The notes below the pieces were generated by a model, which did not search any database, was not told the DNA's origin, and saw nothing but the letters and a program-made list of their open reading frames with translations. A DNA stretch of 64,000 nt from Macrostomum lignano (Eukaryota), in NCBI GenBank assembly GCA_002269645.1, contig NIVC01000669.1, forward strand, positions 1 through 64,000, read 5' to 3'. The translations under genes were made by a program, and so were the position numbers. Position 1 is the stretch's first letter. Every line of letters begins with the position of its first letter. Shown one piece after another: positions 2,766-40,144 of this stretch.

Positions 2766-5700
2766 TTAACGAGGTCGCAGATTATAGCCGTGCGGCTGGC
2801 TCTCGTTCGTTGTTTGAGTCTCCTCGTGCTTCGTTGCGATGTGGCGGTTTGTCGAACGCGTGCGGTCGGCATTGTCAAGTGACGGTAGAAATGTCGCCGT
2901 GTCAGTGTTGATCCTTTTCAATCGATGAATGTGCACGTAGAATTGGTGCTGATGAGGATCTTGCACATTGGCCAGGCGTGCCGTTGTCGGTAACGTTAGT
3001 TGGACCACTCGATATGGTCCTTTGTACTTCTGTGCGTGTTTGTGCGTCTGTTGTGGCGGATAGTGCAGGTAGACGATGTCGCCGGCTGTCAGAGTTGTCG
3101 ATCTCGTGTCGGTGCCGGTGGTCAGAGCCACCTGATTGTCGATGTTGTGCTTGGCTACTTTCCATGCGAGGTGTAGTTGCGTGACGAACTTTTGAATGGA
3201 CGTCGGGACTTCCACATATTGCGATGGTAGTAGTTGCTGTGCCAATAGGTTTGGCGGCTGGAAGTCTCGCCCAAACATTAGAAAGAATGGCGTATTATCC
3301 GTTGATCGATGAATAGCGCTGTTGTAGGCCATTGTTACTGCTTGCAGATAGATGATCCAGTCGTCCGGTTGTTGATGCGCGAAGTGTGTAATCATCTCGT
3401 GTAGGTTGCGGTGAAACCTTTCAACCATGTTCGCCTTCGGATTGTAGGTCGATGTGTAGATCTGCGTGATGTTGAGGATCTTCACCACTTGCTGAAAGAG
3501 TTGAGACGTAAACTGCGATCCATTGTCCGATGTGAGGTTCTTTGGCGTACCGTACTTGCAGATGATGTCGTTGAAGAAACCCATTGCCACTGTCTGAGCT
3601 GTGATGTCCGGTATTGGTATGGCAATAGCAAACTTTGAGAAAATGTCCAAGGCTGTTAGGATGTAGGTGTAGGCTATGCCATGGAGACAGCTCGGTGGCA
3701 GCGGTCCGGTGATGTCGATGCTGAGACAGTCCATAGTCGTTGACTTCGGTATCGATTGTAGCTGTGGTTTTTGTCGTCGTCCTGTCTTTGATGCTGCGCA
3801 TGAGTGGCAGTTATTGCAATACTGCTTGATGTCGCCATGCATGCTTGGCCAAAAGTAGTATTGCTCCACTCTTGCAATGGTTTTGGCTGCCGACAGGTGT
3901 CCAGCGAGTGGGTTGTCGTGCAGCTCGTTGAGAATGGCCTGCCTAAACGAATATGGCATGTAGATTTTAGGTTTGTTGTCACTCATCCAGTAGAGTCGTG
4001 TCTTGTTGATTGTTAAATGTTGTCGCTGCTTGCGCAGGAATTTTCGTTCCACGGGGCTGAGCTTGATGTCCTTGTCGTTGTTTTTAACTGCTATGTAGAA
4101 GTTGTCGTGTTCAGTCTCATCCACCAATTCCTTGATGTTAGGGATTGGATGAATGGCGTTGACTTCGTAGGTTCTTGACAGAGCGTCCGCCGCCTTGTTA
4201 GTAATTCCTGGTTTGTAGACGAGCTTGTAGTTGTAGTCCTGGATCTTGAGTGTCATCCTGATGAGTCGGTTGTTTGTTTGTCCTTTTGTAGTTACGACGT
4301 AGGTCAGCGGTGCGTGATCTGTGCGTACTATCGTCGTATTGGAGAACCATAGATGTAGTAATGGAACTGTCGTAGGGCGAACAAGACTCCTAGTAGTTCT
4401 CGTTCCGTAGCGGACCATTTTGTCTCATTCGGTTTAAGTGCTCGACTGACGTAGGCTATAGGTCGTTCCTTTTTGTCTTCAGTTTCCTGTAGTAGGACTG
4501 CTCCGAGTCCCGTTCCTGAGGCGTCTGTCTCGATGATGAAGGGTTTGTCGAAGTCCGGATGCTGTAGCAGTGCGTCTGATGTCAGCTGTCGTTTGATTTC
4601 GTCAAAACTTTCTTGTTGCTTTTGTGTCCAATTATCCTGCTTCCATTTGTCGAACTTGAGCAGGTCGTACAGCGGCTTTGCTGTCTTCGCGAAGTTGGGT
4701 AAGAACTTTCGGAAGTATTGCGCTAGTCCAAGAAATGATTGGACCTTCGTTATGCTAGTTGGTGTAGGAAACTTCTTTACTTTCTCCACATTGTCTGGGT
4801 CCGGTGAGATTCCTTTGGCTGTCACTTGGTGTCCTAGGTAACGTACGTTGTCTCGGAAGAATTTGCATTTCGTCGGTTGTAGCTTAAGACCTTGGCGTTG
4901 AATGAGCGCTAGGGCCTTCTCCGTAGCTTCATAGAGTCGTTGGAAGTCTTCTCCGTAGGCCAAGATGTCGTCGACATAGTGCAGCAGGTTTGTGCATCCT
5001 GCAAGCATGTATGCCGTTAGTCGGCTCATTGTTGCTGGGCTGTTGCTGAGTCCCATTGGCGACCGGTTGTACTCGTAGACTTGTCCATTGTAGGTTTTGA
5101 AAGCCGTGTACTGTCGTGATTCTTTCTCGATTTCAATTTGCCAAAATCCATGACGTAGGTCGAACACCGTGAACAATTTTGCTGTGTTGAGCTTTGCTAG
5201 TAGCTCGGAGATCTTTGGTAGGCTTTGCTGATCCGTCGGTATGTACTTGTTCAGCAGTCTGAAGTCGCATACAAGTCGTCTTTCGTTAGTCTCCTTCTTT
5301 TGTACCAGTAGGCACGGTGAGGAATAGGCTGAAATTGCTTTGCTGATGATGCCGTGCTTTAGCATTTTATCGATAATTTCATCAAAGTGTTGTTGCAGAT
5401 GTTTGGCAATCGGGTACGGCTTGCATTGAATTGGTTCCGTGTGCGGTAGAAGCTTGATTTCTTGTTTAATGTCTTTAGCGCGTCCGATGTCGTAATCATG
5501 ATGGCAGAAGGCTTCGTTGTACTTCCACAACAGTTGTCGAACTTTCTTCTTTTGCTGTTCCGTGATCGGGCTGTCGTCCAAGTTGATTTTCTTTTGAAAT
5601 TCTTCTTCTGTTAGTCGTGGAGTCGTGTGCTCAATCAGCATAACTGATGCTTGAGTGTTGAGATGACCGATGCACATTCCTTGTCGTAGATGAACCATTT

Positions 5701-8700
5701 CCGCGTTCGGGTTGAAGATTTGTACTGGCAGCTGCTTATCTTTTGCCACCAGCACTAGTGCCGTAGGCATCATAATTTGGTGTTTAGCCGTGACTCTTCT
5801 GTTTGGGTCGAATATCATTGCTTCCTCCGTTGCGTTAGTTGCCTTTGCCTTTATCCAGCAGGCGCTCTCCGGTTGGATGATGACATCTTGTTGCAATGTT
5901 ACTTTTGGTAGTACTCGGATCTGGTTGATCAATGGTTGTTCTACCGAGTCGATCTTGAACGTTTGCTTATTGAAGTCGAAGGTCAATGGTAGTCGAAGCT
6001 GCTTGAACGTGTCGATGCCAACAATAACGTCCTGGTTTGGGAGTCTGTCGATGACGTACGTTGGAACTGTCAAATGTTTATTAGCGATTCTTAAATCAAT
6101 GTCGGCTTTTCCCAGAATGTTTAGCGAATGTCCTCCTGCTCCTGCAACTGCGATTGTTGCTGGCCGTAGAGCAAGTCGTAGCTTGTTGCACAGTTGTTTT
6201 GATATAACTGTAATGGAGCTGCCGGAGTCCAGTAACGCTCGACATGGTAGATTGTTGATTATAACTTGAGCCATTGCTTTGCCAATTTCGGCGTGTAGAG
6301 TACATACGTAGTTTTCTGGCCATTTTGGGTCTTGCTGTTCTGCTTGATAGTTAGGTGGTTGTATTCTTGGTGCCGTTGGTGTTGTCGGAATCGATGGATA
6401 TAGCCGCGTTGCTAGTGTCGGTTGCCCTTGAACCTCACGATGTGCAGTTTCTGTTAGTTCTAAACTGTTGTCGCCTTCCGTTGTCGTTCTTTGCATTATG
6501 GCATTCACTGTCTTCTTAGCTCTTGGACAAGTTTGACTGAAGCACCGTACGATTGACGAAATGATGAAGATTGCCGTGGCAATCCACACAATGCAAGCAC
6601 CGTAGAAGATGAATCCTTGATAGAGACTGCCTCTTCCATTGAGCAGCTCCCAGAAGCTGTTTGTCCAAAATGATTTGATGGCGCTGTCCATTGAAACAAG
6701 GACGGGAAATCTTCCTGTCCCGGTTCCTTTGTCCTTTCTTGTGAACAGCTGGTGAATCATCTTGCGTTGGGTGATGAACGCTTGCAAGAAGTCGTTGATC
6801 GTCCATCCTGGTGTTATTTCGTCAAGTTGGGTATCGGCGAATGGCCTATACTTTGTTCTGTTGAATCGGATTTTCAAATCCTCCATGTCGTAGTTTTCGT
6901 CGACGATTACTTCCGGTTCTGTGATGTTTGCTGTCGTTCCAGTTGTTTTGATGACGTGTAGTGCATTGTCCAGTTGATAGTAGTTCGCTGCCGTGGTGCA
7001 AGGTCTCGGTATTGCGGTGCCAACGATGATGTTGTGTACCGTGTCCAAGAATCCTTGAATTCGTTTTCCTTCGTAGAACGCTTCAATCCTTGGCTTGTCG
7101 TAGCAGGTTGTTGACGTGTTTGACGGCAAGATGTTGAAGTGCTGTATCGGCGTGCACTTGTATATCAACAGATGCTCGTATATTGGAACTGCCAAAACGT
7201 TCGTCATTCCGGTGATTTTACGAAAAGTCATCGTAGGGTTGACATAGTAGTTTTGTCTGGCATAATTTAAGTTGATTGCGTGCATTTTGCAAGTTAGCTG
7301 GACCAGTGTTCGATGCAAGTGGTTTAACTGGTTGTGTAGATTGTGATCCAAAGCCGTTATCTTTGCTGACAGTAGTCGGTTTGACACTAGTTTGGGACGT
7401 TCGATGTCTCGTCGTCGTCTGTTCTGTTGTTCCTGCTGTTGATACGTTCCGTTGATGATCGCCAGAAAGGTTTGTTTGTCGTCTTCTTTTACGTAGACTG
7501 GTATCTCTTGTTCCGAGATGAATAGTGTCTTGTCTGTATCCTTGCATTTCAGTTTTTGCTCGACTGGTTTCTTTTGAAACGTCAGTGCCAAGTCTCCTGA
7601 CTTTGCCAAAAACGTATTTGACAGTAGACCTCCTTCAACTGTGTGATACTTTTGAAGCTTGCAGTCAATTTCCGGCTCAACTTCCCACGCGAAGAAGTAT
7701 TGTCGTGACTTAGATGGTTCTTCATATCGTGAGTCGCCTCTGCGTATAATTTGCCATCGATAGTCTTGATGATATGTTGGACTCAACGGTAAGCTGTATA
7801 GTTCCTCATTCCGCAGTATCGGCGTTGGACACCATCCTTTGCTGTATCGGCAGTCGCTTAATTGCAGTTGTAGCGACTCCATTTTTTCAAAAGGATTGTG
7901 ATAGAATGGAATATTCCTGATTAGGTAACTGTTTCGTGTCATGTAGTTAGTCCATGCTTCCGAAAAGTGTACATATCGTCCGTTTGCTGAGTTCTTCGTT
8001 CGGTAAAGTTGTGCCTCCCCCACTTTCTCATCCGGTTCTAGCTGACCATCCTTTGAGAACAGTGTTTGGTTCCATTGTAGACATTCAGCGTGCGACACAT
8101 GTAGTTCGTGTTGCCAAAATCGAATTCTGTTCCACTGTCCTCGCCAAACTTTTTCCACTAGGTGCTTGTCTCTGAAGCACACTATTCCGTGTTGTCGATG
8201 CTTTTTGATGTTAGCCTTGTAGAGGTCGAGTGTAATCTTCTTTGGCTTCGTTTGGTTTGTCTTGAAGTAGCTGCATTTGATGTCGGTTGGTATCTTGTAG
8301 ATCATCGGTTGGATATGCGCATCCGTTGGACATATCATTGGTTTCTCCATTGCTGTTGCTTTGGTGACTACTGCCGTCAGTAGTATTATGATGATCCAGA
8401 ATATCCAGAATCGCCATTTTCTGAACGTTGCCGTTGTCTTTGCTGGCATTGGCTGCGGCTGCCATTCGTTATCTTCTGCGTCCGCATCGTATTCTTCCTC
8501 TTGTTCCATTGGCGTTTCCGAGCGCAAGGCATCCGATTCGTTCCGCTGCTTGTCGTCTTCATCATTTTCTTCCTTGCTTTCTTCCGATGTTGTAGTTGTG
8601 TCACTCCATTGTCTGCGGTACCTCACTTCGGCCTTGTAGTCGACCGTTTGAATGTAGGCTTCACCATTTCGTTTATATCGGATCTCGTAGCATTGATCGC

Positions 8701-10084
8701 TGTCGGAGCTTAGATTTCTTTCTTCCATTCCTTTGTGCCTTCCGTCTTCATGTGCTTTGTCGACGGCTTGGTTGTCATCAGCGTCATTGTGCATCTCATA
8801 ATCGTGATCGCTGCTTTCTTCTCGCTGTTCTTCTTCCATTTCTGCATTTCCGTCGTTGCTTATTTCGTTGTCATCCTTCGTTGCCAGTTCCTTGTCGTTG
8901 CCTTTGTTTGTTTCTTCTTTTCTTTCATTGATGTCGCTTGGCAATGTTTTTTCTGTGCTCACTTCTGCCTTTTCTTCTTCGCTGTCAATGTTAGTTTCTT
9001 TCATTTCGACCATGCTGATGTTTTTTGTCTTTTCGCTGCTCTCCGCATCGAGCCAGTCGATTTCATTGATAGTGAAGTCCATTTCTAAGTCGTCTATCGT
9101 GAAGACTTGCTGCTCTTGCTGTTCGCTTTCCGGTGTGTACGTGATGGCGTTTGCATATCGTTGCATCGCTTGCGTTGGTTGCTTGGGCATGTATCTGGCG
9201 TTTCGCGGTCTGTAGCCATTGTTTCCTAAGCGTTTCGTGTTTTGCTGCTGCCAATTTTGATGCTGTTGCCATGGTTTTTGCTGCTTCCGTCTGTTGAATG
9301 GCTGTCGCGGCATATCATTTCTTGTTGACCGATGAGGACAATGTATTTGGTAGTGTCCTTCTCGTCCACAGTAATAGCATCTGGCTTGGGCTCGTTCATT
9401 TCGTCTTTTTTGTTCGGCGATAACGGCTGTTTGATGTTGCATCAGCTTGTTTAGTTGCTGTGTCAGTTTCTGCACTTCTGTGTTGCCGGTTGTCATTAGT
9501 GGAGCGCTTGCTTCCCACTGCATTCCGCACCGTAAAAGGTCTTCCTCGGTTTCAATGTTTTCGCGCAAAAGTCTATCCCGCAGTGACGGCTGTGCATTGT
9601 TTATTACGTGCAGGATGAGGTTTTGTTCACGGTCCATCAATCGTTGTCGCTCTCTTGCGGCTAACTCCGCTGCGCCTGGAGGTGGCTGATCCGCCGCTGG
9701 CAGCGTTGGCTGATGCAGTGCCTTAATTATTTGACGTATATCGTCCACGAAGGTCAGGAAGGATTCTGTTGGCTGCATCCGTCTGTTATGCAACTTGTGC
9801 AGTAGCACTGACCTGTTTGTGCCACAGCGGTTGAAGTGTGCGCGCAGTTGAATGATTAATGCTGGGTAGTTTTGCTGTGTTGCCGCGTCTAGTTTACCAT
9901 AAATCTCTCGTGCGGTGCCTTGGAGGAGTGGTGGCAACAGTTGCGCTTTTTCTGGATTTTGTAGGTTGTATTCCCTACATACCAGGTCAAAATGATCAAC
10001 AAAGGTGTTAAAGTCTTTTTCCATAGAAAAGGTGCCAACTGTCTCTTTGATATCTCTGTGCACCGTTGGATTGCGCCGCGCCAT
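2766..10084 (-). pseudogene. Gag-Env-Pol polyprotein, copy A, split by a 1-nt deletion at ~4336 in RNase H (real lesion or consensus error)
   Basis: 1918-aa ORF (4328-10084) plus 550-aa ORF (2766-4418) equal the 2439-aa ORF of copy B. Plus strand tcgtcgtattgg here versus tcgtcggtattgg in copy B. Confidence 0.9.
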
Positions 10085-10780: not shown

Positions 10781-11832
10781 TGATGTGTTCCTTATTACCA
10801 GTCCTCAGCTGTAATCAAGGAACAATCACTTCTAGCTCTGTAGCTAGGCAACCCAGTAATCAAATGAAGGTATGTATTACCTTGAGTCCTGTCTCTGAGA
10901 GCTCTTCCGTGTTCTGTTATTCTCGGACTTCCTTTGAACCTCGAACTTCGTTAGACGTCTATGTTCGTAACCAGGTCCGCGTTCCTTTACGTCCACTGAA
11001 GTCGTTTCCGGCCGGTATCTGTAGTGCGGACCAATGGGAAGCTTCCAAATCAACAATGGGTACCCTGCGCCAATCTGCGGTTTAATATAAGCCTACTCCT
11101 TCTAGCAGTGCCTCCATGCACTCTAGGTATAGCTCCGGAAACCACTGATAGTCTTCTAAGATCTATCAGGGGCAGTCCTTCTGGAGACTGCAACCAGCAG
11201 AGTCTAAACAGACTCAGGAGTCTCAACAGACTCAAATAAACTCAAGTCTCAATAGACTTGAGCGAGACGTCTCAACCAACAGGCGCAAATGAGTAAGGCT
11301 TACCGCAAGAACTCGTCCACGACGCGAGTTTCTTCAGGAAGGCTTCGCTAGAGCTTCCTCTTCGGAGCTTCTCTCTCTTGGAGATTTCTTGGCTCCGGGT
11401 CCGTTCCGGACCACTTGTATTTATAGGCGTTCAGACCTCTCTCGAGGTCGTACATCACTGTCTTCGCAAATGTCAAAGGGTCACGATTCGGTGGCTGTCA
11501 AGCATGACAGGGTAGAAAGTTGCGCAACTAGTCTACTGTAAAAGCGCATGATTGGTTACCGTAGCTGGTAGACTTTGATTGGTTCATCCGGGTGCAACCC
11601 GAGTGCAAACCAAATGATGACTTGAAGGTGGGGTTTGAATTGACAGTTGTTGGTCGCACGTGATTGGGTGATTTCTAAAATTAGCATGCTCGAGATTTCT
11701 CTCTTTCTATTGGTTAATTCGAATATATGTATGGTTCAGCGCATATCCTTATACATGCTCCTCAAATTACTACTATTTAAGTAGTACGTTAACAATTTTA
11801 AATAACTTTTCTGGGAGATATAATACTCTACA
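10781..11832 (-). repeat. Shared middle LTR (5' LTR of copy A = 3' LTR of copy B), 1052 bp
   Basis: Flanked by the PBS on the left and the PPT on the right. TG...CA termini (left edge could be 10784). No differences from 21568-22619 seen by eye. Confidence 0.95.
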
Positions 11833-12043
11833 AAATCTCCCTTTTTTACGAAAAAACTCGTCCCGAGTTTGAATAAAAATATAAATTTACAGAAACGTCT
11901 TGAACTTGATATTGTATATATTTATATTGCCGGTATGTTACATTGTATACATTATCAGTAGTTAGTTTTGTCAGAGTTAATGGAAAGTTATCGTCTGATA
12001 AATGCAGATGACACTTGCCCCTGTGTTGATGCCGCTCGGACGA

Positions 12044-12682
12044 TCAGCCGAACCCGATTTTGAGCACGGCGGATATCTGCTGCGCTGTTCGCGCAGCCAG
12101 ACATGCCACCGCCCAGAATGTCGGCTGAAAGCGTGTGAAGCGCGGTTCCTCTGTGCGCTCGAGTATCATCAGGTAGGCGTCAATACTCGTGAGTCCTGGG
12201 TGCTCGCGAGCCAGGCTCCTGGAAATTCCAAGGACGTGACGCCATGACTCCTGATGCCGGTGCGGCCACGGCCACGACCGGACGGCGATGGACAATTGCT
12301 CGAAGGTCAAGCTGTCCGGCTCCGCCAACGTCAACTCTGGCACTGGTGTTATTGTCGCCAACATCAGCGCCGTCGAATGGTTGACAGGAGCTAGACATTC
12401 GGTGCAGATCTCTATATCTCTTGCACCGTACCTTCGGAGACAGCTTGCACAGACCCAATGTCGGTTGGAACACACCTGAACATGGGGCTGTTCGCCGCAT
12501 ACCACACAGGTAGCCCGCGCGCGACGGCAGACCGGGCAGGTAGATAGCATGGTAACATTGCCATCCACCTGCTGCGCCATGGCGTCGCAGGAGACACACA
12601 CGCGGTGTCCCCACTCACACGTCGGGATCATATAGTCCCGCGTCTCGAGACAGCAGGGGCATACGTCGTTGTTCTCGGCCAT
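12044..12682 (-). CDS. Retroelement accessory ORF3, double RING-HC protein (copy B)
   Basis: Translation identical to 1258-1896. Confidence 0.85.
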   Translation of the reverse strand: MAENNDVCPCCLETRDYMIPTCEWGHRVCVSCDAMAQQVDGNVTMLSTCPVCRRARATCVVCGEQPHVQVCSNRHWVCASCLRRYGARDIEICTECLAPVNHSTALMLATITPVPELTLAEPDSLTFEQLSIAVRSWPWPHRHQESWRHVLGISRSLAREHPGLTSIDAYLMILERTEEPRFTRFQPTFWAVACLAARTAQQISAVLKIGFG

Positions 12683-12736
12683 CTGCGGGTTTTATGTAAT
12701 CATCGTAATTAAAGCAGTCAGGGTGAAGTATACAGT

Positions 12737-13405
12737 CTACTGTGTATACCGTAAAAGCCATATGAAATAACTACGTGACAAAATTAGTCTTTTTAGCGCG
12801 TGGCAATATATGTGCAATGTCCAGTGAAACGCGTGATGGGCATGCAAAAATTGTCGTAGATGTCGTTCTATATCCAGGGGTAACATATGACGCAATATTC
12901 CTTGATTGTTATGTGCGTACAGTAGTAATTCATTGCGTGACCGTCGAGCGAAACGAGGTACTGGCCAAAACTCTAGCAACTGTTCGATACGTATTGCGGG
13001 TAGTGTTCGAATATTATCAACATGTAAGCATCGATTGGCGTCGGGCTTGATGCGACACCACTTCTTGAAGGTGCTGTCCTTCGGCATACTGTTACACATA
13101 GGGCATCCTATGATGCCCCTACTAGCGGTTCGTTTCAAGCATTGCATGCAAATAAAATGACTTTGATTACAGTATTGAAAGGTGCGCCACGAATAACAAT
13201 AGGCGCACTGCGTCAGACTACTCCTACATAGGGGGCAGCTTTGCCAGTGTTGGATATGATGCGCGTCACACAAGCAAGTGCCGCATATGCGATGATTATT
13301 TATACAAATGGTTGGTGGTTTTTTATGCAGGTCATCTTCCAAACAGACAGGGCATTCATAGAGTTGCCGTGGCTGGGTCGCCAGTCTAGACTGTGCATTG
13401 CCCAT
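12737..13405 (-). CDS. Retroelement accessory ORF2, myristoylation motif plus double RING-HC (copy B)
   Basis: Translation identical to copy A; ATG at 13405 gives MGNAQS. Confidence 0.85.
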   Translation of the reverse strand: MGNAQSRLATQPRQLYECPVCLEDDLHKKPPTICINNHRICGTCLCDAHHIQHWQSCPLCRSSLTQCAYCYSWRTFQYCNQSHFICMQCLKRTASRGIIGCPMCNSMPKDSTFKKWCRIKPDANRCLHVDNIRTLPAIRIEQLLEFWPVPRFARRSRNELLLYAHNNQGILRHMLPLDIERHLRQFLHAHHAFHWTLHIYCHALKRLILSRSYFIWLLRYTQ

Positions 13406-13551
13406 AGTCGTTAGCCAAGCGTCAGTTGCGGTTATGTAGTCAATTGTAGAGTTCACTTGTGGAGTCGCTCGGATTAGTCGCCTCTTACGACAAGCTTGCG
13501 AAGCTGTAGAGCTATTCTGACCCGGTCTCTACACGGGTTTGTTTTCGCAAC

Positions 13552-16500
13552 TTAACGAGGTCGCAGATTATAGCCGTGCGGCTGGCTCTCGTTCGTTGTT
13601 TGAGTCTCCTCGTGCTTCGTTGCGATGTGGCGGTTTGTCGAACGCGTGCGGTCGGCATTGTCAAGTGACGGTAGAAATGTCGCCGTGTCAGTGTTGATCC
13701 TTTTCAATCGATGAATGTGCACGTAGAATTGGTGCTGATGAGGATCTTGCACATTGGCCAGGCGTGCCGTTGTCGGTAACGTTAGTTGGACCACTCGATA
13801 TGGTCCTTTGTACTTCTGTGCGTGTTTGTGCGTCTGTTGTGGCGGATAGTGCAGGTAGACGATGTCGCCGGCTGTCAGAGTTGTCGATCTCGTGTCGGTG
13901 CCGGTGGTCAGAGCCACCTGATTGTCGATGTTGTGCTTGGCTACTTTCCATGCGAGGTGTAGTTGCGTGACGAACTTTTGAATGGACGTCGGGACTTCCA
14001 CATATTGCGATGGTAGTAGTTGCTGTGCCAATAGGTTTGGCGGCTGGAAGTCTCGCCCAAACATTAGAAAGAATGGCGTATTATCCGTTGATCGATGAAT
14101 AGCGCTGTTGTAGGCCATTGTTACTGCTTGCAGATAGATGATCCAGTCGTCCGGTTGTTGATGCGCGAAGTGTGTAATCATCTCGTGTAGGTTGCGGTGA
14201 AACCTTTCAACCATGTTCGCCTTCGGATTGTAGGTCGATGTGTAGATCTGCGTGATGTTGAGGATCTTCACCACTTGCTGAAAGAGTTGAGACGTAAACT
14301 GCGATCCATTGTCCGATGTGAGGTTCTTTGGCGTACCGTACTTGCAGATGATGTCGTTGAAGAAACCCATTGCCACTGTCTGAGCTGTGATGTCCGGTAT
14401 TGGTATGGCAATAGCAAACTTTGAGAAAATGTCCAAGGCTGTTAGGATGTAGGTGTAGGCTATGCCATGGAGACAGCTCGGTGGCAGCGGTCCGGTGATG
14501 TCGATGCTGAGACAGTCCATAGTCGTTGACTTCGGTATCGATTGTAGCTGTGGTTTTTGTCGTCGTCCTGTCTTTGATGCTGCGCATGAGTGGCAGTTAT
14601 TGCAATACTGCTTGATGTCGCCATGCATGCTTGGCCAAAAGTAGTATTGCTCCACTCTTGCAATGGTTTTGGCTGCCGACAGGTGTCCAGCGAGTGGGTT
14701 GTCGTGCAGCTCGTTGAGAATGGCCTGCCTAAACGAATATGGCATGTAGATTTTAGGTTTGTTGTCACTCATCCAGTAGAGTCGTGTCTTGTTGATTGTT
14801 AAATGTTGTCGCTGCTTGCGCAGGAATTTTCGTTCCACGGGGCTGAGCTTGATGTCCTTGTCGTTGTTTTTAACTGCTATGTAGAAGTTGTCGTGTTCAG
14901 TCTCATCCACCAATTCCTTGATGTTAGGGATTGGATGAATGGCGTTGACTTCGTAGGTTCTTGACAGAGATACCGCCGCCTTGTTAGTAATTCCTGGTTT
15001 GTAGACGAGCTTGTAGTTGTAGTCCTGGATCTTGAGTGTCATCCTGATGAGTCGGTTGTTTGTTTGTCCTTTTGTAGTTACGACGTAGGTCAGCGGTGCG
15101 TGATCTGTGCGTACTATCGTCGGTATTGGAGAACCATAGATGTAGTAATGGAACTGTCGTAGGGCGAACAAGACTCCTAGTAGTTCTCGTTCCGTAGCGG
15201 ACCATTTTGTCTCATTCGGTTTAAGTGCTCGACTGACGTAGGCTATAGGTCGTTCCTTTTTGTCTTCAGTTTCCTGTAGTAGGACTGCTCCGAGTCCCGT
15301 TCCTGAGGCGTCTGTCTCGATGATGAAGGGTTTGTCGAAGTCCGGATGCTGTAGCAGTGCGTCTGATGTCAGCTGTCGTTTGATTTCGTCAAAACTTTCT
15401 TGTTGCTTTTGTGTCCAATTATCCTGCTTCCATTTGTCGAACTTGAGCAGGTCGTACAGCGGCTTTGCTGTCTTCGCGAAGTTGGGTAAGAACTTTCGGA
15501 AGTATTGCGCTAGTCCAAGAAATGATTGGACCTTCGTTATGCTAGTTGGTGTAGGAAACTTCTTTACTTTCTCCACATTGTCTGGGTCCGGTGAGATTCC
15601 TTTGGCTGTCACTTGGTGTCCTAGGTAACGTACGTTGTCTCGGAAGAATTTGCATTTCGTCGGTTGTAGCTTAAGACCTTGGCGTTGAATGAGCGCTAGG
15701 GCCTTCTCCGTAGCTTCATAGAGTCGTTGGAAGTCTTCTCCGTAGGCCAAGATGTCGTCGACATAGTGCAGCAGGTTTGTGCATCCTGCAAGCATGTATG
15801 CCGTTAGTCGGCTCATTGTTGCTGGGCTGTTGCTGAGTCCCATTGGCGACCGGTTGTACTCGTAGACTTGTCCATTGTAGGTTTTGAAAGCCGTGTACTG
15901 TCGTGATTCTTTCTCGATTTCAATTTGCCAAAATCCATGACGTAGGTCGAACACCGTGAACAATTTTGCTGTGTTGAGCTTTGCTAGTAGCTCGGAGATC
16001 TTTGGTAGGCTTTGCTGATCCGTCGGTATGTACTTGTTCAGCAGTCTGAAGTCGCATACAAGTCGTCTTTCGTTAGTCTCCTTCTTTTGTACCAGTAGGC
16101 ACGGTGAGGAATAGGCTGAAATTGCTTTGCTGATGATGCCGTGCTTTAGCATTTTATCGATAATTTCATCAAAGTGTTGTTGCAGATGTTTGGCAATCGG
16201 GTACGGCTTGCATTGAATTGGTTCCGTGTGCGGTAGAAGCTTGATTTCTTGTTTAATGTCTTTAGCGCGTCCGATGTCGTAATCATGATGGCAGAAGGCT
16301 TCGTTGTACTTCCACAACAGTTGTCGAACTTTCTTCTTTTGCTGTTCCGTGATCGGGCTGTCGTCCAAGTTGATTTTCTTTTGAAATTCTTCTTCTGTTA
16401 GTCGTGGAGTCGTGTGCTCAATCAGCATAACTGATGCTTGAGTGTTGAGATGACCGATGCACATTCCTTGTCGTAGATGAACCATTTCCGCGTTCGGGTT

Positions 16501-19500
16501 GAAGATTTGTACTGGCAGCTGCTTATCTTTTGCCACCAGCACTAGTGCCGTAGGCATCATAATTTGGTGTTTAGCCGTGACTCTTCTGTTTGGGTCGAAT
16601 ATCATTGCTTCCTCCGTTGCGTTAGTTGCCTTTGCCTTTATCCAGCAGGCGCTCTCCGGTTGGATGATGACATCTTGTTGCAATGTTACTTTTGGTAGTA
16701 CTCGGATCTGGTTGATCAATGGTTGTTCTACCGAGTCGATCTTGAACGTTTGCTTATTGAAGTCGAAGGTCAATGGTAGTCGAAGCTGCTTGAACGTGTC
16801 GATGCCAACAATAACGTCCTGGTTTGGGAGTCTGTCGATGACGTACGTTGGAACTGTCAAATGTTTATTAGCGATTCTTAAATCAATGTCGGCTTTTCCC
16901 AGAATGTTTAGCGAATGTCCTCCTGCTCCTGCAACTGCGATTGTTGCTGGCCGTAGAGCAAGTCGTAGCTTGTTGCACAGTTGTTTTGATATAACTGTAA
17001 TGGAGCTGCCGGAGTCCAGTAACGCTCGACATGGTAGATTGTTGATTATAACTTGAGCCATTGCTTTGCCAATTTCGGCGTGTAGAGTACATACGTAGTT
17101 TTCTGGCCATTTTGGGTCTTGCTGTTCTGCTTGATAGTTAGGTGGTTGTATTCTTGGTGCCGTTGGTGTTGTCGGAATCGATGGATATAGCCGCGTTGCT
17201 AGTGTCGGTTGCCCTTGAACCTCACGATGTGCAGTTTCTGTTAGTTCTAAACTGTTGTCGCCTTCCGTTGTCGTTCTTTGCATTATGGCATTCACTGTCT
17301 TCTTAGCTCTTGGACAAGTTTGACTGAAGCACCGTACGATTGACGAAATGATGAAGATTGCCGTGGCAATCCACACAATGCAAGCACCGTAGAAGATGAA
17401 TCCTTGATAGAGACTGCCTCTTCCATTGAGCAGCTCCCAGAAGCTGTTTGTCCAAAATGATTTGATGGCGCTGTCCATTGAAACAAGGACGGGAAATCTT
17501 CCTGTCCCGGTTCCTTTGTCCTTTCTTGTGAACAGCTGGTGAATCATCTTGCGTTGGGTGATGAACGCTTGCAAGAAGTCGTTGATCGTCCATCCTGGTG
17601 TTATTTCGTCAAGTTGGATATCGGCGAATGGCCTATACTTTGTTCTGTTGAATCGGATTTTCAAATCCTCCATGTCGTAGTTTTCGTCGACGATTACTTC
17701 CGGTTCTGTGATGTTTGCTGTCGTTCCAGTTGTTTTGATGACGTGTAGTGCATTGTCCAGTTGATAGTAGTTCGCTGCCGTGGTGCAAGGTCTCGGTATT
17801 GCGGTGCCAACGATGATGTTGTGTACCGTGTCCAAGAATCCCTGAATTCGTTTTCCTTCGTAGAACGCTTCAATCCTTGGCTTGTCGTAGCAGGTTGTTG
17901 ACGTGTTTGACGGCAAGATGTTGAAGTGCTGTATCGGCGTGCACTTGTATATCAACAGATGCTCGTATATTGGAACTGCCAAAACGTTCGTCATTCCGGT
18001 GATTTTACGAAAAGTCATCGTAGGGTTGACATAGTAGTTTTGTCTGGCATAATTTAAGTTGATTGCGTGCATTTTGCAAGTTAGCTGGACCAGTGTTCGA
18101 TGCAAGTGGTTTAACTGGTTGTGTAGATTGTGATCCAAAGCCGTTATCTTTGCTGACAGTAGTCGGTTTGACACTAGTTTGGGACGTTCGATGTCTCGTC
18201 GTCGTCTGTTCTGTTGTTCCTGCTGTTGATACGTTCCGTTGATGATCGCCAGAAAGGTTTGTTTGTCGTCTTCTTTTACGTAGACTGGTATCTCTTGTTC
18301 CGAGATGAATAGTGTCTTGTCTGTATCCTTGCATTTCAGTTTTTGCTCGACTGGTTTCTTTTGAAACGTCAGTGCCAAGTCTCCTGACTTTGCCAAAAAC
18401 GTATTTGACAGTAGACCTCCTTCAACTGTGTGATACTTTTGAAGCTTGCAGTCAATTTCCGGCTCAACTTCCCACGCGAAGAAGTATTGTCGTGACTTAG
18501 ATGGTTCTTCATATCGTGAGTCGCCTCTGCGTATAATTTGCCATCGATAGTCTTGATGATATGTTGGACTCAACGGTAAGCTGTATAGTTCCTCATTCCG
18601 CAGTATCGGCGTTGGACACCATCCTTTGCTGTATCGGCAGTCGCTTAATTGCAGTTGTAGCGACTCCATTTTTTCAAAAGGATTGTGGTAGAATGGAATA
18701 TTCCTGATTAGGTAACTGTTTCGTGTCATGTAGTTAGTCCATGCTTCCGAAAAGTGTACATATCGTCCGTTTGCTGAGTTCTTCGTTCGGTAAAGTTGTG
18801 CCTCCCCCACTTTCTCATCCGGTTCTAGCTGACCATCCTTTGAGAACAGTGTTTGGTTCCATTGTAGACATTCAGCGTGCGACACATGTAGTTCGTGTTG
18901 CCAAAATCGAATTCTGTTCCACTGTCCTCGCCAAACTTTTTCCACTAGGTGCTTGTCTCTGAAGCACACTATTCCGTGTTGTCGATGCTTTTTGATGTTA
19001 GCCTTGTAGAGGTCGAGTGTAATCTTCTTTGGCTTCGTTTGGTTTGTCTTGAAGTAGCTGCATTTGATGTCGGTTGGTATCTTGTAGATCATCGGTTGGA
19101 TATGCGCATCCGTTGGACATATCATTGGTTTCTCCATTGCTGTTGCTTTGGTGACTACTGCCGTCAGTAGTATTATGATGATCCAGAATATCCAGAATCG
19201 CCATTTTCTGAACGTTGCCGTTGTCTTTGCTGGCATTGGCTGCGGCTGCCATTCGTTATCTTCTGCGTCCGCATCGTATTCTTCCTCTTGTTCCATTGGC
19301 GTTTCCGAGCGCAAGGCATCCGATTCGTTCCGCTGCTTGTCGTCTTCATCATTTTCTTCCTTGCTTTCTTCCGATGTTGTAGTTGTGTCACTCCATTGTC
19401 TGCGGTACCTCACTTCGGCCTTGTAGTCGACCGTTTGAATGTAGGCTTCACCATTTCGTTTATATCGGATCTCGTAGCATTGATCGCTGTCGGAGCTTAG

Positions 19501-20871
19501 ATTTCTTTCTTCCATTCCTTTGTGCCTTCCGTCTTCATGTGCTTTGTCGACGGCTTGGTTGTCATCAGCGTCATTGTGCATCTCATAATCGTGATCGCTG
19601 CTTTCTTCTCGCTGTTCTTCTTCCATTTCTGCATTTCCGTCGTTGCTTATTTCGTTGTCATCCTTCGTTGCCAGTTCCTTGTCGTTGCCTTTGTTTGTTT
19701 CTTCTTTTCTTTCATTGATGTCGCTTGGCAATGTTTTTTCTGTGCTCACTTCTGCCTTTTCTTCTTCGCTGTCAATGTTAGTTTCTTTCATTTCGACCAT
19801 GCTGATGTTTTTTGTCTTTTCGCTGCTCTCCGCATCGAGCCAGTCGATTTCATTGATAGTGAAGTCCATTTCTAAGTCGTCTATCGTGAAGACTTGCTGC
19901 TCTTGCTGTTCGCTTTCCGGTGTGTACGTGATGGCGTTTGCATATCGTTGCATCGCTTGCGTTGGTTGCTTGGGCATGTATCTGGCGTTTCGCGGTCTGT
20001 AGCCATTGTTTCCTAAGCGTTTCGTGTTTTGCTGCTGCCAATTTTGATGCTGTTGCCATGGTTTTTGCTGCTTCCGTCTGTTGAATGGCTGTCGCGGCAT
20101 ATCATTTCTTGTTGACCGATGAGGACAATGTATTTGGTAGTGTCCTTCTCGTCCACAGTAATAGCATCTGGCTTGGGCTCGTTCATTTCGTCTTTTTTGT
20201 TCGGCGATAACGGCTGTTTGATGTTGCATCAGCTTGTTTAGTTGCTGTGTCAGTTTCTGCACTTCTGTGTTGCCGGTTGTCATTAGTGGAGCGCTTGCTT
20301 CCCACTGCATTCCGCACCGTAAAAGGTCTTCCTCGGTTTCAATGTTTTCGCGCAAAAGTCTATCCCGCAGTGACGGCTGTGCATTGTTTATTACGTGCAG
20401 GATGAGGTTTTGTTCACGGTCCATCAATCGTTGTCGCTCTCTTGCGGCTAACTCCGCTGCGCCTGGAGGTGGCTGATCCGCCGCTGGCAGCGTTGGCTGA
20501 TGCAGTGCCTTAATTATTTGACGTATATCGTCCACGAAGGTCAGGAAGGATTCTGTTGGCTGCATCCGTCTGTTATGCAACTTGTGCAGTAGCACTGACC
20601 TGTTTGTGCCACAGCGGTTGAAGTGTGCGCGCAGTTGAATGATTAATGCTGGGTAGTTTTGCTGTGTTGCCGCGTCTAGTTTACCATAAATCTCTCGTGC
20701 GGTGCCTTGGAGGAGTGGTGGCAACAGTTGCGCTTTTTCTGGATTTTGTAGGTTGTATTCCCTACATACCAGGTCAAAATGATCAACAAAGGTGTTAAAG
20801 TCTTTTTCCATAGAAAAGGTGCCAACTGTCTCTTTGATATCTCTGTGCACCGTTGGATTGCGCCGCGCCAT
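13552..20871 (-). CDS. Single-ORF Gag-Env-PR-RT-RNaseH-IN polyprotein, 2439 aa (copy B)
   Basis: Capsid-like N terminus; CYYCGREGHYQIHC knuckle aa236-249; LLDSGS protease D1286; RT YVDD aa1703-1706; RNase H IIETDASG D1854; integrase HHCC, DDE (SIDITGP/TSDNGSQF/VERFHR) and GPY; C-terminal YNLRPR. No stop or frameshift. Confidence 0.97.
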   Translation of the reverse strand: MARRNPTVHRDIKETVGTFSMEKDFNTFVDHFDLVCREYNLQNPEKAQLLPPLLQGTAREIYGKLDAATQQNYPALIIQLRAHFNRCGTNRSVLLHKLHNRRMQPTESFLTFVDDIRQIIKALHQPTLPAADQPPPGAAELAARERQRLMDREQNLILHVINNAQPSLRDRLLRENIETEEDLLRCGMQWEASAPLMTTGNTEVQKLTQQLNKLMQHQTAVIAEQKRRNERAQARCYYCGREGHYQIHCPHRSTRNDMPRQPFNRRKQQKPWQQHQNWQQQNTKRLGNNGYRPRNARYMPKQPTQAMQRYANAITYTPESEQQEQQVFTIDDLEMDFTINEIDWLDAESSEKTKNISMVEMKETNIDSEEEKAEVSTEKTLPSDINERKEETNKGNDKELATKDDNEISNDGNAEMEEEQREESSDHDYEMHNDADDNQAVDKAHEDGRHKGMEERNLSSDSDQCYEIRYKRNGEAYIQTVDYKAEVRYRRQWSDTTTTSEESKEENDEDDKQRNESDALRSETPMEQEEEYDADAEDNEWQPQPMPAKTTATFRKWRFWIFWIIIILLTAVVTKATAMEKPMICPTDAHIQPMIYKIPTDIKCSYFKTNQTKPKKITLDLYKANIKKHRQHGIVCFRDKHLVEKVWRGQWNRIRFWQHELHVSHAECLQWNQTLFSKDGQLEPDEKVGEAQLYRTKNSANGRYVHFSEAWTNYMTRNSYLIRNIPFYHNPFEKMESLQLQLSDCRYSKGWCPTPILRNEELYSLPLSPTYHQDYRWQIIRRGDSRYEEPSKSRQYFFAWEVEPEIDCKLQKYHTVEGGLLSNTFLAKSGDLALTFQKKPVEQKLKCKDTDKTLFISEQEIPVYVKEDDKQTFLAIINGTYQQQEQQNRRRRDIERPKLVSNRLLSAKITALDHNLHNQLNHLHRTLVQLTCKMHAINLNYARQNYYVNPTMTFRKITGMTNVLAVPIYEHLLIYKCTPIQHFNILPSNTSTTCYDKPRIEAFYEGKRIQGFLDTVHNIIVGTAIPRPCTTAANYYQLDNALHVIKTTGTTANITEPEVIVDENYDMEDLKIRFNRTKYRPFADIQLDEITPGWTINDFLQAFITQRKMIHQLFTRKDKGTGTGRFPVLVSMDSAIKSFWTNSFWELLNGRGSLYQGFIFYGACIVWIATAIFIISSIVRCFSQTCPRAKKTVNAIMQRTTTEGDNSLELTETAHREVQGQPTLATRLYPSIPTTPTAPRIQPPNYQAEQQDPKWPENYVCTLHAEIGKAMAQVIINNLPCRALLDSGSSITVISKQLCNKLRLALRPATIAVAGAGGHSLNILGKADIDLRIANKHLTVPTYVIDRLPNQDVIVGIDTFKQLRLPLTFDFNKQTFKIDSVEQPLINQIRVLPKVTLQQDVIIQPESACWIKAKATNATEEAMIFDPNRRVTAKHQIMMPTALVLVAKDKQLPVQIFNPNAEMVHLRQGMCIGHLNTQASVMLIEHTTPRLTEEEFQKKINLDDSPITEQQKKKVRQLLWKYNEAFCHHDYDIGRAKDIKQEIKLLPHTEPIQCKPYPIAKHLQQHFDEIIDKMLKHGIISKAISAYSSPCLLVQKKETNERRLVCDFRLLNKYIPTDQQSLPKISELLAKLNTAKLFTVFDLRHGFWQIEIEKESRQYTAFKTYNGQVYEYNRSPMGLSNSPATMSRLTAYMLAGCTNLLHYVDDILAYGEDFQRLYEATEKALALIQRQGLKLQPTKCKFFRDNVRYLGHQVTAKGISPDPDNVEKVKKFPTPTSITKVQSFLGLAQYFRKFLPNFAKTAKPLYDLLKFDKWKQDNWTQKQQESFDEIKRQLTSDALLQHPDFDKPFIIETDASGTGLGAVLLQETEDKKERPIAYVSRALKPNETKWSATERELLGVLFALRQFHYYIYGSPIPTIVRTDHAPLTYVVTTKGQTNNRLIRMTLKIQDYNYKLVYKPGITNKAAVSLSRTYEVNAIHPIPNIKELVDETEHDNFYIAVKNNDKDIKLSPVERKFLRKQRQHLTINKTRLYWMSDNKPKIYMPYSFRQAILNELHDNPLAGHLSAAKTIARVEQYYFWPSMHGDIKQYCNNCHSCAASKTGRRQKPQLQSIPKSTTMDCLSIDITGPLPPSCLHGIAYTYILTALDIFSKFAIAIPIPDITAQTVAMGFFNDIICKYGTPKNLTSDNGSQFTSQLFQQVVKILNITQIYTSTYNPKANMVERFHRNLHEMITHFAHQQPDDWIIYLQAVTMAYNSAIHRSTDNTPFFLMFGRDFQPPNLLAQQLLPSQYVEVPTSIQKFVTQLHLAWKVAKHNIDNQVALTTGTDTRSTTLTAGDIVYLHYPPQQTHKHAQKYKGPYRVVQLTLPTTARLANVQDPHQHQFYVHIHRLKRINTDTATFLPSLDNADRTRSTNRHIATKHEETQTTNESQPHGYNLRPR
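17335..19212 (-). other. Envelope-like type I glycoprotein domain inside the polyprotein (aa554-1179; copy A 6548-8425), gB/chuvirus-like class III fusogen candidate
   Basis: Internal signal FRKWRFWIFWIIIILLTAVVTKATA, Cys-rich ectodomain with N-glycosylation sequons (NQT, NGT, NTS, NIT, NRT), furin site RRRR (aa889-892), long helix ending in C...NP...G...A...C-x-P-I as in gB domain III/IV, TM FIFYGACIVWIATAIFIISSIV. Confidence 0.8.
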
Positions 20872-21567
20872 GTTGTTGATGGGATAGAACGGTAGCTCTA
20901 GGTCTGGGTCGATTTGTAATGGATCTTCCAGTGTGGTGTTTCTTTCGAAATAAACTTCGGTTGTAACTGATTGTCTCGCGGCGCTTTTGACACCTCAATT
21001 TGTTATGTCTGACCTTGAGCGGAATTCGGCTTTTGGCTGCTTTTTCTGACCTCTTATTCGCTGGCTGATTTTCGCACTTATGCGGCGTCCCGCAAAGTGT
21101 ATCTTTAAAGTGCTTGAAGTGCAGCTGCTTCTTGCTTTTTTCAAAGGCCTTTCTTGTCTTCGTGACGTGCCTTGTCACGTTTTATCAAATTTCGGTTTGT
21201 TTTAGCTTTCGTCAAGTGTTTTTAATTTCGGTTTTTTTTTAGTGTGTATTGATTATTTTTCGGTTTGTTTTCAGTGTACCGGACGTTGTTTTCGGTTTTG
21301 TTTAAGGTTTACTCTTGCTCGAGCTCGTTAAAAACAAAAATTTAACACGCGTGCTCAAACGTTACTCAAAATTGACAGGTACTCAAGCCTGTATATCGAA
21401 ACTTTTACTCGCGTTTCAAATCGTAAAAAAATCGAAAAGTGTCGAAAAATTTTACCTCTAACACGTGCGCGCAAAATTAATGAAGTCGCTCTTTCGTCAC
21501 GTTACAATAGCTTGATCAGGGCTATTGCTCAAAGTTTGAGTAGTGCCGAGAGGGCGAGATCACCAAT

Positions 21568-22619
21568 TGATGTGTTCCTTATTACCAGTCCTCAGCTGTA
21601 ATCAAGGAACAATCACTTCTAGCTCTGTAGCTAGGCAACCCAGTAATCAAATGAAGGTATGTATTACCTTGAGTCCTGTCTCTGAGAGCTCTTCCGTGTT
21701 CTGTTATTCTCGGACTTCCTTTGAACCTCGAACTTCGTTAGACGTCTATGTTCGTAACCAGGTCCGCGTTCCTTTACGTCCACTGAAGTCGTTTCCGGCC
21801 GGTATCTGTAGTGCGGACCAATGGGAAGCTTCCAAATCAACAATGGGTACCCTGCGCCAATCTGCGGTTTAATATAAGCCTACTCCTTCTAGCAGTGCCT
21901 CCATGCACTCTAGGTATAGCTCCGGAAACCACTGATAGTCTTCTAAGATCTATCAGGGGCAGTCCTTCTGGAGACTGCAACCAGCAGAGTCTAAACAGAC
22001 TCAGGAGTCTCAACAGACTCAAATAAACTCAAGTCTCAATAGACTTGAGCGAGACGTCTCAACCAACAGGCGCAAATGAGTAAGGCTTACCGCAAGAACT
22101 CGTCCACGACGCGAGTTTCTTCAGGAAGGCTTCGCTAGAGCTTCCTCTTCGGAGCTTCTCTCTCTTGGAGATTTCTTGGCTCCGGGTCCGTTCCGGACCA
22201 CTTGTATTTATAGGCGTTCAGACCTCTCTCGAGGTCGTACATCACTGTCTTCGCAAATGTCAAAGGGTCACGATTCGGTGGCTGTCAAGCATGACAGGGT
22301 AGAAAGTTGCGCAACTAGTCTACTGTAAAAGCGCATGATTGGTTACCGTAGCTGGTAGACTTTGATTGGTTCATCCGGGTGCAACCCGAGTGCAAACCAA
22401 ATGATGACTTGAAGGTGGGGTTTGAATTGACAGTTGTTGGTCGCACGTGATTGGGTGATTTCTAAAATTAGCATGCTCGAGATTTCTCTCTTTCTATTGG
22501 TTAATTCGAATATATGTATGGTTCAGCGCATATCCTTATACATGCTCCTCAAATTACTACTATTTAAGTAGTACGTTAACAATTTTAAATAACTTTTCTG
22601 GGAGATATAATACTCTACA
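21568..22619 (-). repeat. 5' LTR of copy B, 1052 bp; right end of the array
   Basis: Similarity to the other LTRs stops after ...TACTCTACA; host flank begins aacacggg. Confidence 0.95.
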
Positions 22620-24055: not shown

Positions 24056-24463
24056 ATGCGCTTTGTCACTGTTGCTCTGGCTCTGATGGCAATGGCCGCC
24101 GCTTGCAACGGCTTCGGCTACGGTAGCGCTGGCCCCGCCGAGGTCACCGAAGAGGAATTCGACAAGTACGGCAGGCCCCGCTTAGTCAGTCACTATTTGG
24201 AGAATCCCTACGGCTGGCGCAAGGTGCTGTACGAAGCGCCCAAGGATAGCTATGGCAGCTACAAGTATGGCGGCGGCTACGGCTACGGCGGCGATAGCTA
24301 CGGCTATGGCGATGATAGCTACGGTTATGGCTCTGGCTACGGCTCTGGCTACGGCTCTGGCTACGGCTCTGGCTACGGCTCTGGCTACGGCTCCGGCTAC
24401 GGCTCTGGCTACGGCTCTGGCTATGGCTCTGGCTACGGCGCCAAGTCTGGCAATGTCTACTAA
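24056..24463 (+). CDS. Secreted Gly/Tyr-rich structural protein, 135 aa, (GYGS)9; eggshell/vitelline-protein-like
   Basis: The ATG at 24056 gives signal peptide MRFVTVALALMAMAAACNG. Single exon, GC-rich codons, TATA-like AT stretch upstream, Tyr/Gly repeats and an FDKYG motif. Confidence 0.8.
   Translation: MRFVTVALALMAMAAACNGFGYGSAGPAEVTEEEFDKYGRPRLVSHYLENPYGWRKVLYEAPKDSYGSYKYGGGYGYGGDSYGYGDDSYGYGSGYGSGYGSGYGSGYGSGYGSGYGSGYGSGYGSGYGAKSGNVY

Positions 24464-39460: not shown

Positions 39461-40144
<684 letters not shown>

Follow-up and report, generated by a model that had tools for sequence, protein, structure and literature searches.

Putative double-RING ubiquitin ligase genes downstream of pol in an envelope-carrying Ty3/gypsy element of Macrostomum lignano

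We analyzed a 64,000-nucleotide stretch of the Macrostomum lignano genome (NCBI GenBank assembly GCA_002269645.1, contig NIVC01000669.1, positions 1 to 64,000 of the forward strand), hereafter the window, which carries an envelope-bearing Ty3/gypsy element with two small genes, ORF2 and ORF3, between pol and the long terminal repeat (LTR). Judged by their sequences, the two predicted proteins are most likely stand-alone accessory RING E3 ubiquitin ligases. To the more specific claim that each is a self-contained ligase, in which an active RING is joined to a degenerate one and to a tail that binds substrates, and that the two would act in parallel and not as an obligate heterodimer, we assign a probability of about 0.5. 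The class of element, the occurrence of ORFs 3' of pol and the carriage of RING domains (in the Burro elements) were already known. The pair of stand-alone double-RING genes appears to be new, since the literature searched, from which subscription papers and Repbase reports are largely missing, yielded no description of such genes for an LTR element.

A predictable enzyme activity is rare among the accessory genes of animal LTR elements, and a compact tandem of one active and one degenerate RING copy would be an unusual ligase architecture. Two small, separately expressed ligase candidates open to testing the old question of how envelope-carrying retrotransposons counter host defence, and their substrates would name host factors that restrict such elements in flatworms.

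Two homologous genes with tandem RING domains

ORF2 (222 aa, positions 12737-13405) and ORF3 (212 aa, 12044-12682) are separated by 54 nt and lie on the minus strand, as does every feature of the element described below. When the interval from pol to the LTR was shuffled in dinucleotide blocks, none of 2000 shuffles contained two ATG-initiated ORFs of at least 212 aa. Each protein consists of a first RING (RING1), a linker of 6 residues after the last RING1 cysteine, a second RING (RING2) and a tail. ORF2 has RING1 at aa 18-60 (13223-13354) and RING2 at aa 67-104 (13094-13207), followed by a basic tail with W147-P148, and ORF3 has RING1 at aa 8-52 (12524-12661) and RING2 at aa 59-96 (12395-12508), followed by a helical tail with W137-P138. 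The first-pass annotation of this DNA had described this architecture and a shared RING2 spacing of C-x2-C-x8-C-x3-H-x2-C-x2-C-x11-C-x2-C; both descriptions hold, the spacing being exact in the two proteins. The RING consensus is C-x2-C-x(9-39)-C-x(1-3)-H-x(2-3)-C-x2-C-x(4-48)-C-x2-C. RING1 fits its C3HC4 spacing in both proteins (2,12,3,2,2,12,2 in ORF2 and 2,10,3,2,2,16,2 in ORF3), and RING2 has all eight ligands, yet its first loop of 8 residues falls below the consensus minimum of 9.

The two proteins are 28% identical over 137 aa (BLASTP, E 2e-13). When cysteines and histidines were held fixed and the remaining residues shuffled, the observed local score of 146 compared with 69+/-14 in the shuffles and was reached by none of 2000, so the homology exceeds what the shared zinc lattice would give. 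The proposal that ORF2 and ORF3 are paralogs therefore withstood the check for non-homology.

A profile built from ORF2 and ORF3 was searched against 1.84 billion representative proteins and returned 10 matches. Five of these have the double-RING architecture (P0001 to P0005) and five were dropped, namely three that we read as SRCR/Ig repeat proteins (P0006, P0007, and P0009) and two single RINGs (P0008 and P0010). Searched singly, ORF2 had no match at E 0.001 among 38 candidates and ORF3 none at E 0.1 among 144. A six-sequence profile searched against 90% clusters retrieved P0003 and P0005 only, among 893 candidates; these two derive from short assembled contigs of 994 and 1167 nt. The resulting family comprises eight rows (ORF2, ORF3, two segments of P0001, and P0002 to P0005), all of which have the 16 ligands and the 6-residue linker. 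RING2 spacing is identical in seven of the eight rows, the first loop having 8 residues in those seven and 9 in P0004. ORF3 is 59% and 64% identical to the two P0001 segments, whereas ORF2 is 35% identical to its closest relative, P0002, and 24% to ORF3; the remaining pairs range from 22 to 31%. P0001, which is available as a protein model only, consists of two ORF3-type segments that are 60% alike and has no ORF2-type segment. In a tree with long branches that it does not resolve, the ORF3 group was supported (97/96) and the grouping of ORF2 with P0002 was weak (78/90).

The family also bears on the tails, for which the first-pass annotation had noted a similar motif downstream of the RINGs. 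The motifs are present, but their likeness as a pairwise result was rejected: 673 of 2000 shuffles reached the tail-to-tail score, the profile-profile probability of the two tails was 0.35%, and 40 of 500 shuffles reached the score of the ORF2 tail against a hidden Markov model (HMM) of the tails. The P0002 tail, scored against the tail HMM, exceeded 495 of 500 shuffles, and the W-P pair occupies the same column in seven of the eight rows, the eighth being a 130-aa protein that lacks this region. Likeness of the downstream motif is thus supported through the family only.

An active-looking RING beside a degenerate one

RING1 has Leu or Phe after Cys2 (Leu in ORF2), Pro after Cys7, and Arg after Cys8 in all eight rows, that is, the E2-facing hydrophobic residue, the proline and the linchpin arginine of an active E3. 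In RING2, the linchpin arginine is absent from every row (one has Lys), Leu or Phe after Cys2 is likewise found in none, and the proline is kept in five; ORF2 RING2 lacks the arginine and ORF3 RING2 lacks both arginine and proline. The linchpin contacts E2 and ubiquitin and thereby closes the E2~ubiquitin conjugate (PMC11992055).

Searches with the family profile retrieved the RINGs of TRIM21, TRIM32, and RING1B at RING1 (E 8e-5 to 1e-3) and the BRE1 RING at RING2 (E 0.0015), and the RING1 and RING2 profiles matched each other with 95.6% probability. ORF3 RING2 is RING-like by this sequence profile, although on its own it matches no RING; ORF2 RING2 alone gave a weak match to TRIM32 (E 0.021). 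The best Pfam family for both proteins was Sina_RING (E 0.011 and 16.4 bits for ORF2, E 0.001 and 19.6 bits for ORF3, cut-off 29.3 bits), and among the relatives P0004 came closest to a cut-off (zf-C3HC4_3, 26.6 against 27). NCBIfam gave no match for any of three proteins. SIAH/Sina-type C3HC4 RINGs with C-x3-H resemble RING1 in the eight-ligand pattern, the E2-facing Leu and Pro and the linchpin Arg. Known RING E3s differ from the proteins described here, which have two RINGs 6 residues apart in one natural chain, a RING2 first loop of 8 residues and a tail without a known family.

A structure model of ORF3, built from 7 sequences, had a mean pLDDT of 74, with values mostly of 86-95 over the RINGs, 66-74 in the RING1 insert and lower values in the helical tail. 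Over about 50 residues, its segment 1-57 aligned with many solved RING domains at Z 4-5.2 and an rmsd of 2-3.5 A, so RING1 adopts the cross-brace RING fold in the model; the Z-scores are modest, as expected for a small domain. Matches to RING1 filled the fold-search lists, by which RING2 and the tail were barely probed. The top Foldseek rows were RING1B-BMI1 fusions (E 0.004-0.009) superposed at an rmsd of 12-13 A, which is no whole-chain match. A single-sequence model of ORF2 had a pLDDT of 37 and no usable fold, and the Atlas gave only leads under 0.9 for this protein (giant-virus RING and SAP proteins).

Paralogous RING heterodimers such as BRCA1/BARD1 and RING1B/BMI1 are common and also occur among our matches, and ORF2 and ORF3 are adjacent and homologous. 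These points favor the idea, raised in the first-pass annotation, of an obligate ORF2-ORF3 heterodimer that arose by duplication within the element and degrades PIWI or other silencing factors. We regard it as improbable, as RING1 looks active in both proteins and neither partner lacks the E2-facing residues. P0001 pairs two ORF3-type segments with no ORF2-type one, ORF2 groups (weakly) with P0002 and not with ORF3, and the codon composition of the two genes differs. PIWI or any other silencing factor as a substrate was unsupported, nothing in the data pointing there. We prefer parallel, self-contained ligases to an obligate heterodimer because the asymmetry between an active and a degenerate RING sits within each chain. 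In this respect RING1 and RING2 can be likened to RING/pseudo-RING pairs such as RING1B-BMI1 and BRCA1-BARD1 and to the TRIM pseudoligases (PMC11992055).

Constraint, spliced expression and a proposed mechanism

The first-pass annotation had also taken the intactness of both genes in two copies of the element as a sign of selection. Both are indeed intact in the second unit (ORF2 at 1951-2619 and ORF3 at 1258-1896), but their DNA is identical between the units (0 nt differences in either gene), and intactness is therefore uninformative; as evidence of selection in near-identical copies it was rejected. Constraint is visible at the protein level against the relatives. All 16 ligands are retained between ORF3 and the P0001 segments, which are 56-61% identical elsewhere (chance 8e-5 and 3e-4), a sign that the ORF3 lineage is under purifying selection. 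Applied to distant rows, this test is circular, because the search itself selected for ligands.

The paralogy is old, the split between ORF2 and ORF3 being as deep as the whole family. A duplication inside the element, as the first-pass annotation had it, is not supported, since ORF2 is closer to P0002 than to ORF3. At fourfold-degenerate sites the GC fraction is 0.68 in ORF3, 0.47 in ORF2, 0.44 in pol, and 0.76 in a neighboring host ORF; pol differs from ORF3 (p 3e-5) and not significantly from ORF2 (p 0.17), and ORF2 differs from ORF3 (p 0.024). Because of the deep split, the closeness of ORF2 to P0002 and the differing composition, assembly of the pair from two lineages would fit equally well. 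Gene number seems to vary among related elements, judging from the two ORF3-type segments of P0001 and from a short post-pol stretch in Mlig_errantivirus_2, an M. lignano element listed in PMC13524379. An antisense frame in the 3' untranslated region (11998-12030, plus strand) resembles the start of a P0001 RING gene (7/9 identical, E 6.9), probably by chance.

The composition of ORF3, unlike that of pol and nearer that of the host ORF, and the apparently variable gene number are what one would expect if the genes were passive cargo, that is, recently captured host RING genes of no use to the element. This is the explanation we disfavor most and hold to be very improbable. The searches described above yielded no close named host gene and five true relatives; ORF3 and its LTR-linked relatives stayed open and kept all ligands at about 40% divergence, and the composition of ORF2 matches that of pol.

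ORF3 is probably made from an mRNA onto which a non-coding LTR exon is spliced, because the leader of the P0001 protein model ends at the sole GTAAG of the LTR and CAG directly precedes the ORF3 ATG. The putative donor lies at 22086-22090, about 120 nt downstream of a TATAAA (22207-22212), and no ATG occurs between the TATAAA (22212) and the donor. The putative acceptor AG (12683-12684) is directly before the ORF3 ATG, and the P0001 model, in which a repeated leader has the Met of the RING gene as its next residue, implies the same junction; this evidence comes from a gene model, not from RNA. The P0001 leader aligns to a sense frame of the LTR and ends exactly at the GTAAG at 22090, with a score of 44 against a null of 25.6+/-3.5 (1/1000), while a comparison with the whole window leaves this match short of significance (E 2.4). 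The alignment points to P0001 belonging to a related LTR element. Three copies of the LTR-like leader occur in P0001, a hint that its source, too, may have a tandem array. An equivalent donor in the middle LTR of the array analyzed here lies at about 11299-11303.

Location 3' of pol, where env usually sits, and spliced expression are shared with CERV, a Cys-rich accessory protein of the Caenorhabditis elegans element Cer1 (PMC10309623), and Cer1 itself has a flatworm gB errantivirus as its sister (PMC13524379). Any element that relies on splicing also has to export unspliced RNA, RING2 contains a basic helix, and tails of the ORF2 type carry a strong positive charge (+11, +12). ORF2 and ORF3 could thus be regulators of element RNA or transcription, zinc proteins that favor the export or expression of the unspliced genome, with the RINGs serving as scaffolds and ligase activity absent or incidental. 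We consider this unlikely, because the E2-facing residues of RING1 are invariant and ORF3-type tails are neutral or acidic. CERV is described as a 517-aa protein with a C4 loop, an M domain and a G-like domain and not as a RING protein; it shares exons with gag and acts in the export of genomic RNA (PMC10309623), and the putative splice here starts in the LTR and not in gag.

Under the preferred reading of parallel ligases, the message for ORF3, and probably also that for ORF2, would be a subgenomic mRNA formed by splicing from the donor in the LTR. RING1 would bind and activate E2~ubiquitin, and RING2 would serve as a non-catalytic partner on the same chain, as in a fused RING/pseudo-RING pair, or as a binding surface. 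The diverged tails would choose the substrates, so that the two proteins could work in parallel on different targets or in different compartments, ORF2 being basic and possibly myristoylated and ORF3 neutral and poor in lysine to escape self-ubiquitination. The purpose would be to mark host restriction, silencing or stress-signalling proteins for degradation, and by analogy with viral RING ligases host defence proteins are the most likely targets. ORF3 has a single lysine in 212 aa (position 208) and the P0001 segments have 2 in 209 and 0 in 176, a deficit that for ORF3 is significant against the family lysine frequency (p 0.002). Lysine deserts are common in E3s (PMC10169902).

Several observations weigh against this reading. 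Given the GC-rich codon composition of ORF3 itself, its lysine deficit reaches only p 0.03, and ORF2 has 8 lysines. No clear acceptor that preserves the ORF2 ATG was found; candidates lie at 13504-13529, and those with a branch-like motif lie just inside the ORF and would remove the ATG. Neither protein reached the cut-off of any Pfam family, and Foldseek gave no match at E 0.001 or better in the PDB and viral libraries (best Z 5.2). The profile that retrieved the five relatives was itself derived from ORF2 and ORF3, a choice that favors the shared C-P-x-C-R motif. RINGs can act without ligase activity, and arenavirus Z is among the matches. The Arg linchpin is missing from some active RINGs, and there are inactive RINGs that look intact (PMC11992055); since exceptions run in both directions, neither an active RING1 nor an inactive RING2 is certain.

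Small virus-encoded RING E3s of herpesvirus (ICP0), giant viruses and white spot syndrome virus are comparable to ORF2 and ORF3 and gave weak matches, but these span one RING, none is at E 0.001 or better, and no donor virus can be named from them. Vif, Vpu, and similar retroviral accessory proteins borrow host ligases and are not known to encode a RING. We tentatively raise the possibility of an invertebrate "complex retrovirus", an enveloped Ty3/gypsy element that expresses its own single-chain RING/pseudo-RING E3s by splicing, varies the number of their paralogs and destroys host antiviral or silencing proteins with them. Such ligases, if this holds, would give a retroelement a distinct means of counter-defence.

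The host element and its surroundings

By its sequence, the host element is an envelope-carrying (GAG-ENV-POL) Ty3/gypsy element of a described class. A single polyprotein of 2439 aa (13552-20871) comprises Gag, env, protease, reverse transcriptase (RT), RNase H, and integrase, with a Gag CCHC knuckle at aa 236-251 and the full-length pol order protease-RT-RNase H-integrase in one ORF with gag, as in errantiviruses. The env segment (17320-19206) is of the gB/class III type and stands in frame between gag and protease, with a signal segment (aa 556-580), a transmembrane helix (aa 1154-1184) and RRRR at aa 889. Its match to the Pfam family PF24664 (Monjiviricetes_fusion; E 1.6e-5, 23.5 bits) is below the curated cut-off of 27 bits, and a PDB sequence search gave no match. 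By eye it looks similar to the rows for bryozoan gB-type env in the PMC13524379 supplement; an F-type or gB-type env with both hydrophobic segments, which errantiviruses have, is thus present at a sub-threshold Pfam score. The first-pass annotation had placed the double-RING cassette where env usually sits. The position 3' of pol is indeed the usual one of env, but replacement of env by the cassette was rejected, as env lies between gag and protease. A long, acidic low-complexity spacer (19207-19900, aa 330-555), which contains the basic motifs RYKR (469) and RYRR (488), separates the Gag knuckle from the env signal segment.

The cytoplasmic tail of env contains three clustered motifs, YPxI, PTAP, and PPxY, which resemble late-domain motifs (17134-17190). 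They span 19 residues (aa 1228-1246) just before the protease, and all three occurred in only 2 of 200000 shuffles of the 86-aa tail, for patterns chosen post hoc. The cluster suggests ESCRT-dependent budding driven by Env and not by Gag. ORF2 and ORF3 might accordingly be assembly or budding helpers that ubiquitinate Env, Gag or membrane cargo for ESCRT, or ORF2 might be a myristoylated RING matrix-like protein, in analogy with arenavirus Z, which appears among both the weak profile matches and the weak fold matches. ORF2 is basic and starts with M-G-x-x-x-S, which resembles a myristoylation motif, and the Gag start is not M-G. This role is nevertheless doubtful for the pair, as the M-G start is absent from P0002 to P0005 and from ORF3 and PPxY would already recruit a host ligase. 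In addition, Mlig_errantivirus_2, with 16 copies, has space for at most one such gene 3' of pol, judging from its coordinates (PMC13524379). Accessory ligases acting in parallel remain our preferred reading for the two proteins.

Elements with gB-type env in the GAG-ENV-POL order are known from nematodes, bryozoans, and flatworms (Chary and Hayashi, PMC13524379). The element table of that study has 1512 elements, 1151 of them with a primer-binding site (PBS), and the PBS 12-mer found here occurs in it once, in Mlig_errantivirus_2. Taken with the gene order and the many minisatellites of the window, this one 12-mer would by itself make Macrostomum or a relative the probable host. In both elements pol has the Ty3/gypsy order and a gB-type env separates gag from pol, and the distance from the 5' LTR end to the pol stop is similar (about 8.2 kb in Mlig_errantivirus_2 and 8.0 kb here). 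They differ in LTR-to-LTR length (9727 and 10787 nt, respectively) and in the post-pol stretch, which by coordinates, not sequence, is about 680 nt or less in Mlig_errantivirus_2 and 1719 nt here. The words "RING", "zinc finger", and "accessory" are absent from the main text of PMC13524379, and the available parts of a paper on M. lignano LTR families (PMC12801592) make no mention of such genes. A region with genes 3' of pol escapes errantivirus surveys that consider gag, pol, and env alone.

The Burro/GYPSM1 giant gypsy elements of planarians likewise have env in frame between gag and pol and carry ubiquitin-related cargo (AIR1/RING zinc finger, MATH/TRAF, BIR, and SUMO-like domains), but there the domains belong to a polyprotein of about 4900-5100 aa or to an ORF upstream (PMC6431247), whereas here two small genes, each with a double RING, stand separately 3' of pol in a 10.8-kb unit. 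Bdelloid LTR elements have extra ORFs 3' of pol with non-envelope functions (ORF3), although their cargo consists of esterases and exonucleases (PMC5408684); "RING", "ubiquitin", and "ligase" are absent from the available text of that paper.

The element forms a head-to-tail tandem array (LTR-internal-LTR-internal-LTR, window positions 1-22619) with shared LTRs and a repeat unit of 10787 bp. The two units have 12 differences over 11.8 kb (99.9% identical), and the array may possibly be an assembly duplication. Its 3' end is just beyond the window, so that no target-site duplication is readable. The 5' LTR (TG...CA, about 1052 bp) is at 21568-22619, and the middle LTR (10781-11832), common to both units, is identical to it. 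The PBS is at 21554-21565, and a purine-rich tract (PPT) at 11833-11850 precedes the middle LTR, so the unit at 10781-22619 has the LTRs, PBS, and PPT of an errantivirus. Between the PBS and the gag ATG there is an A-rich leader of about 690 nt (20872-21553), in which a short palindrome right after the PBS (around 21505-21530) is a possible packaging or dimerisation signal. A search of the LTR for a canonical heat-shock element was negative, and an Rfam scan of the window gave no match. In the other unit (2766-10084) the polyprotein is broken near 4330, between RNase H and integrase, and reads as two ORFs; mutation and sequencing error are indistinguishable there.

Beyond the element, a host ORF on the plus strand (24056-24463), 1.4 kb away, encodes a secreted-looking, Gly/Tyr-rich protein of 135 aa with GSGY repeats and no Pfam match. 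A second host ORF on the plus strand (24909-25691) has a SPATIAL domain (PF15256, E 1.8e-12, above the cut-off). The rest of the window (27200-64000) is dense in minisatellite arrays with units of 12-40 nt, and minisatellite richness is a trait of the genus Macrostomum; a perfect (AGAT)171 run is found at 39461-40144.

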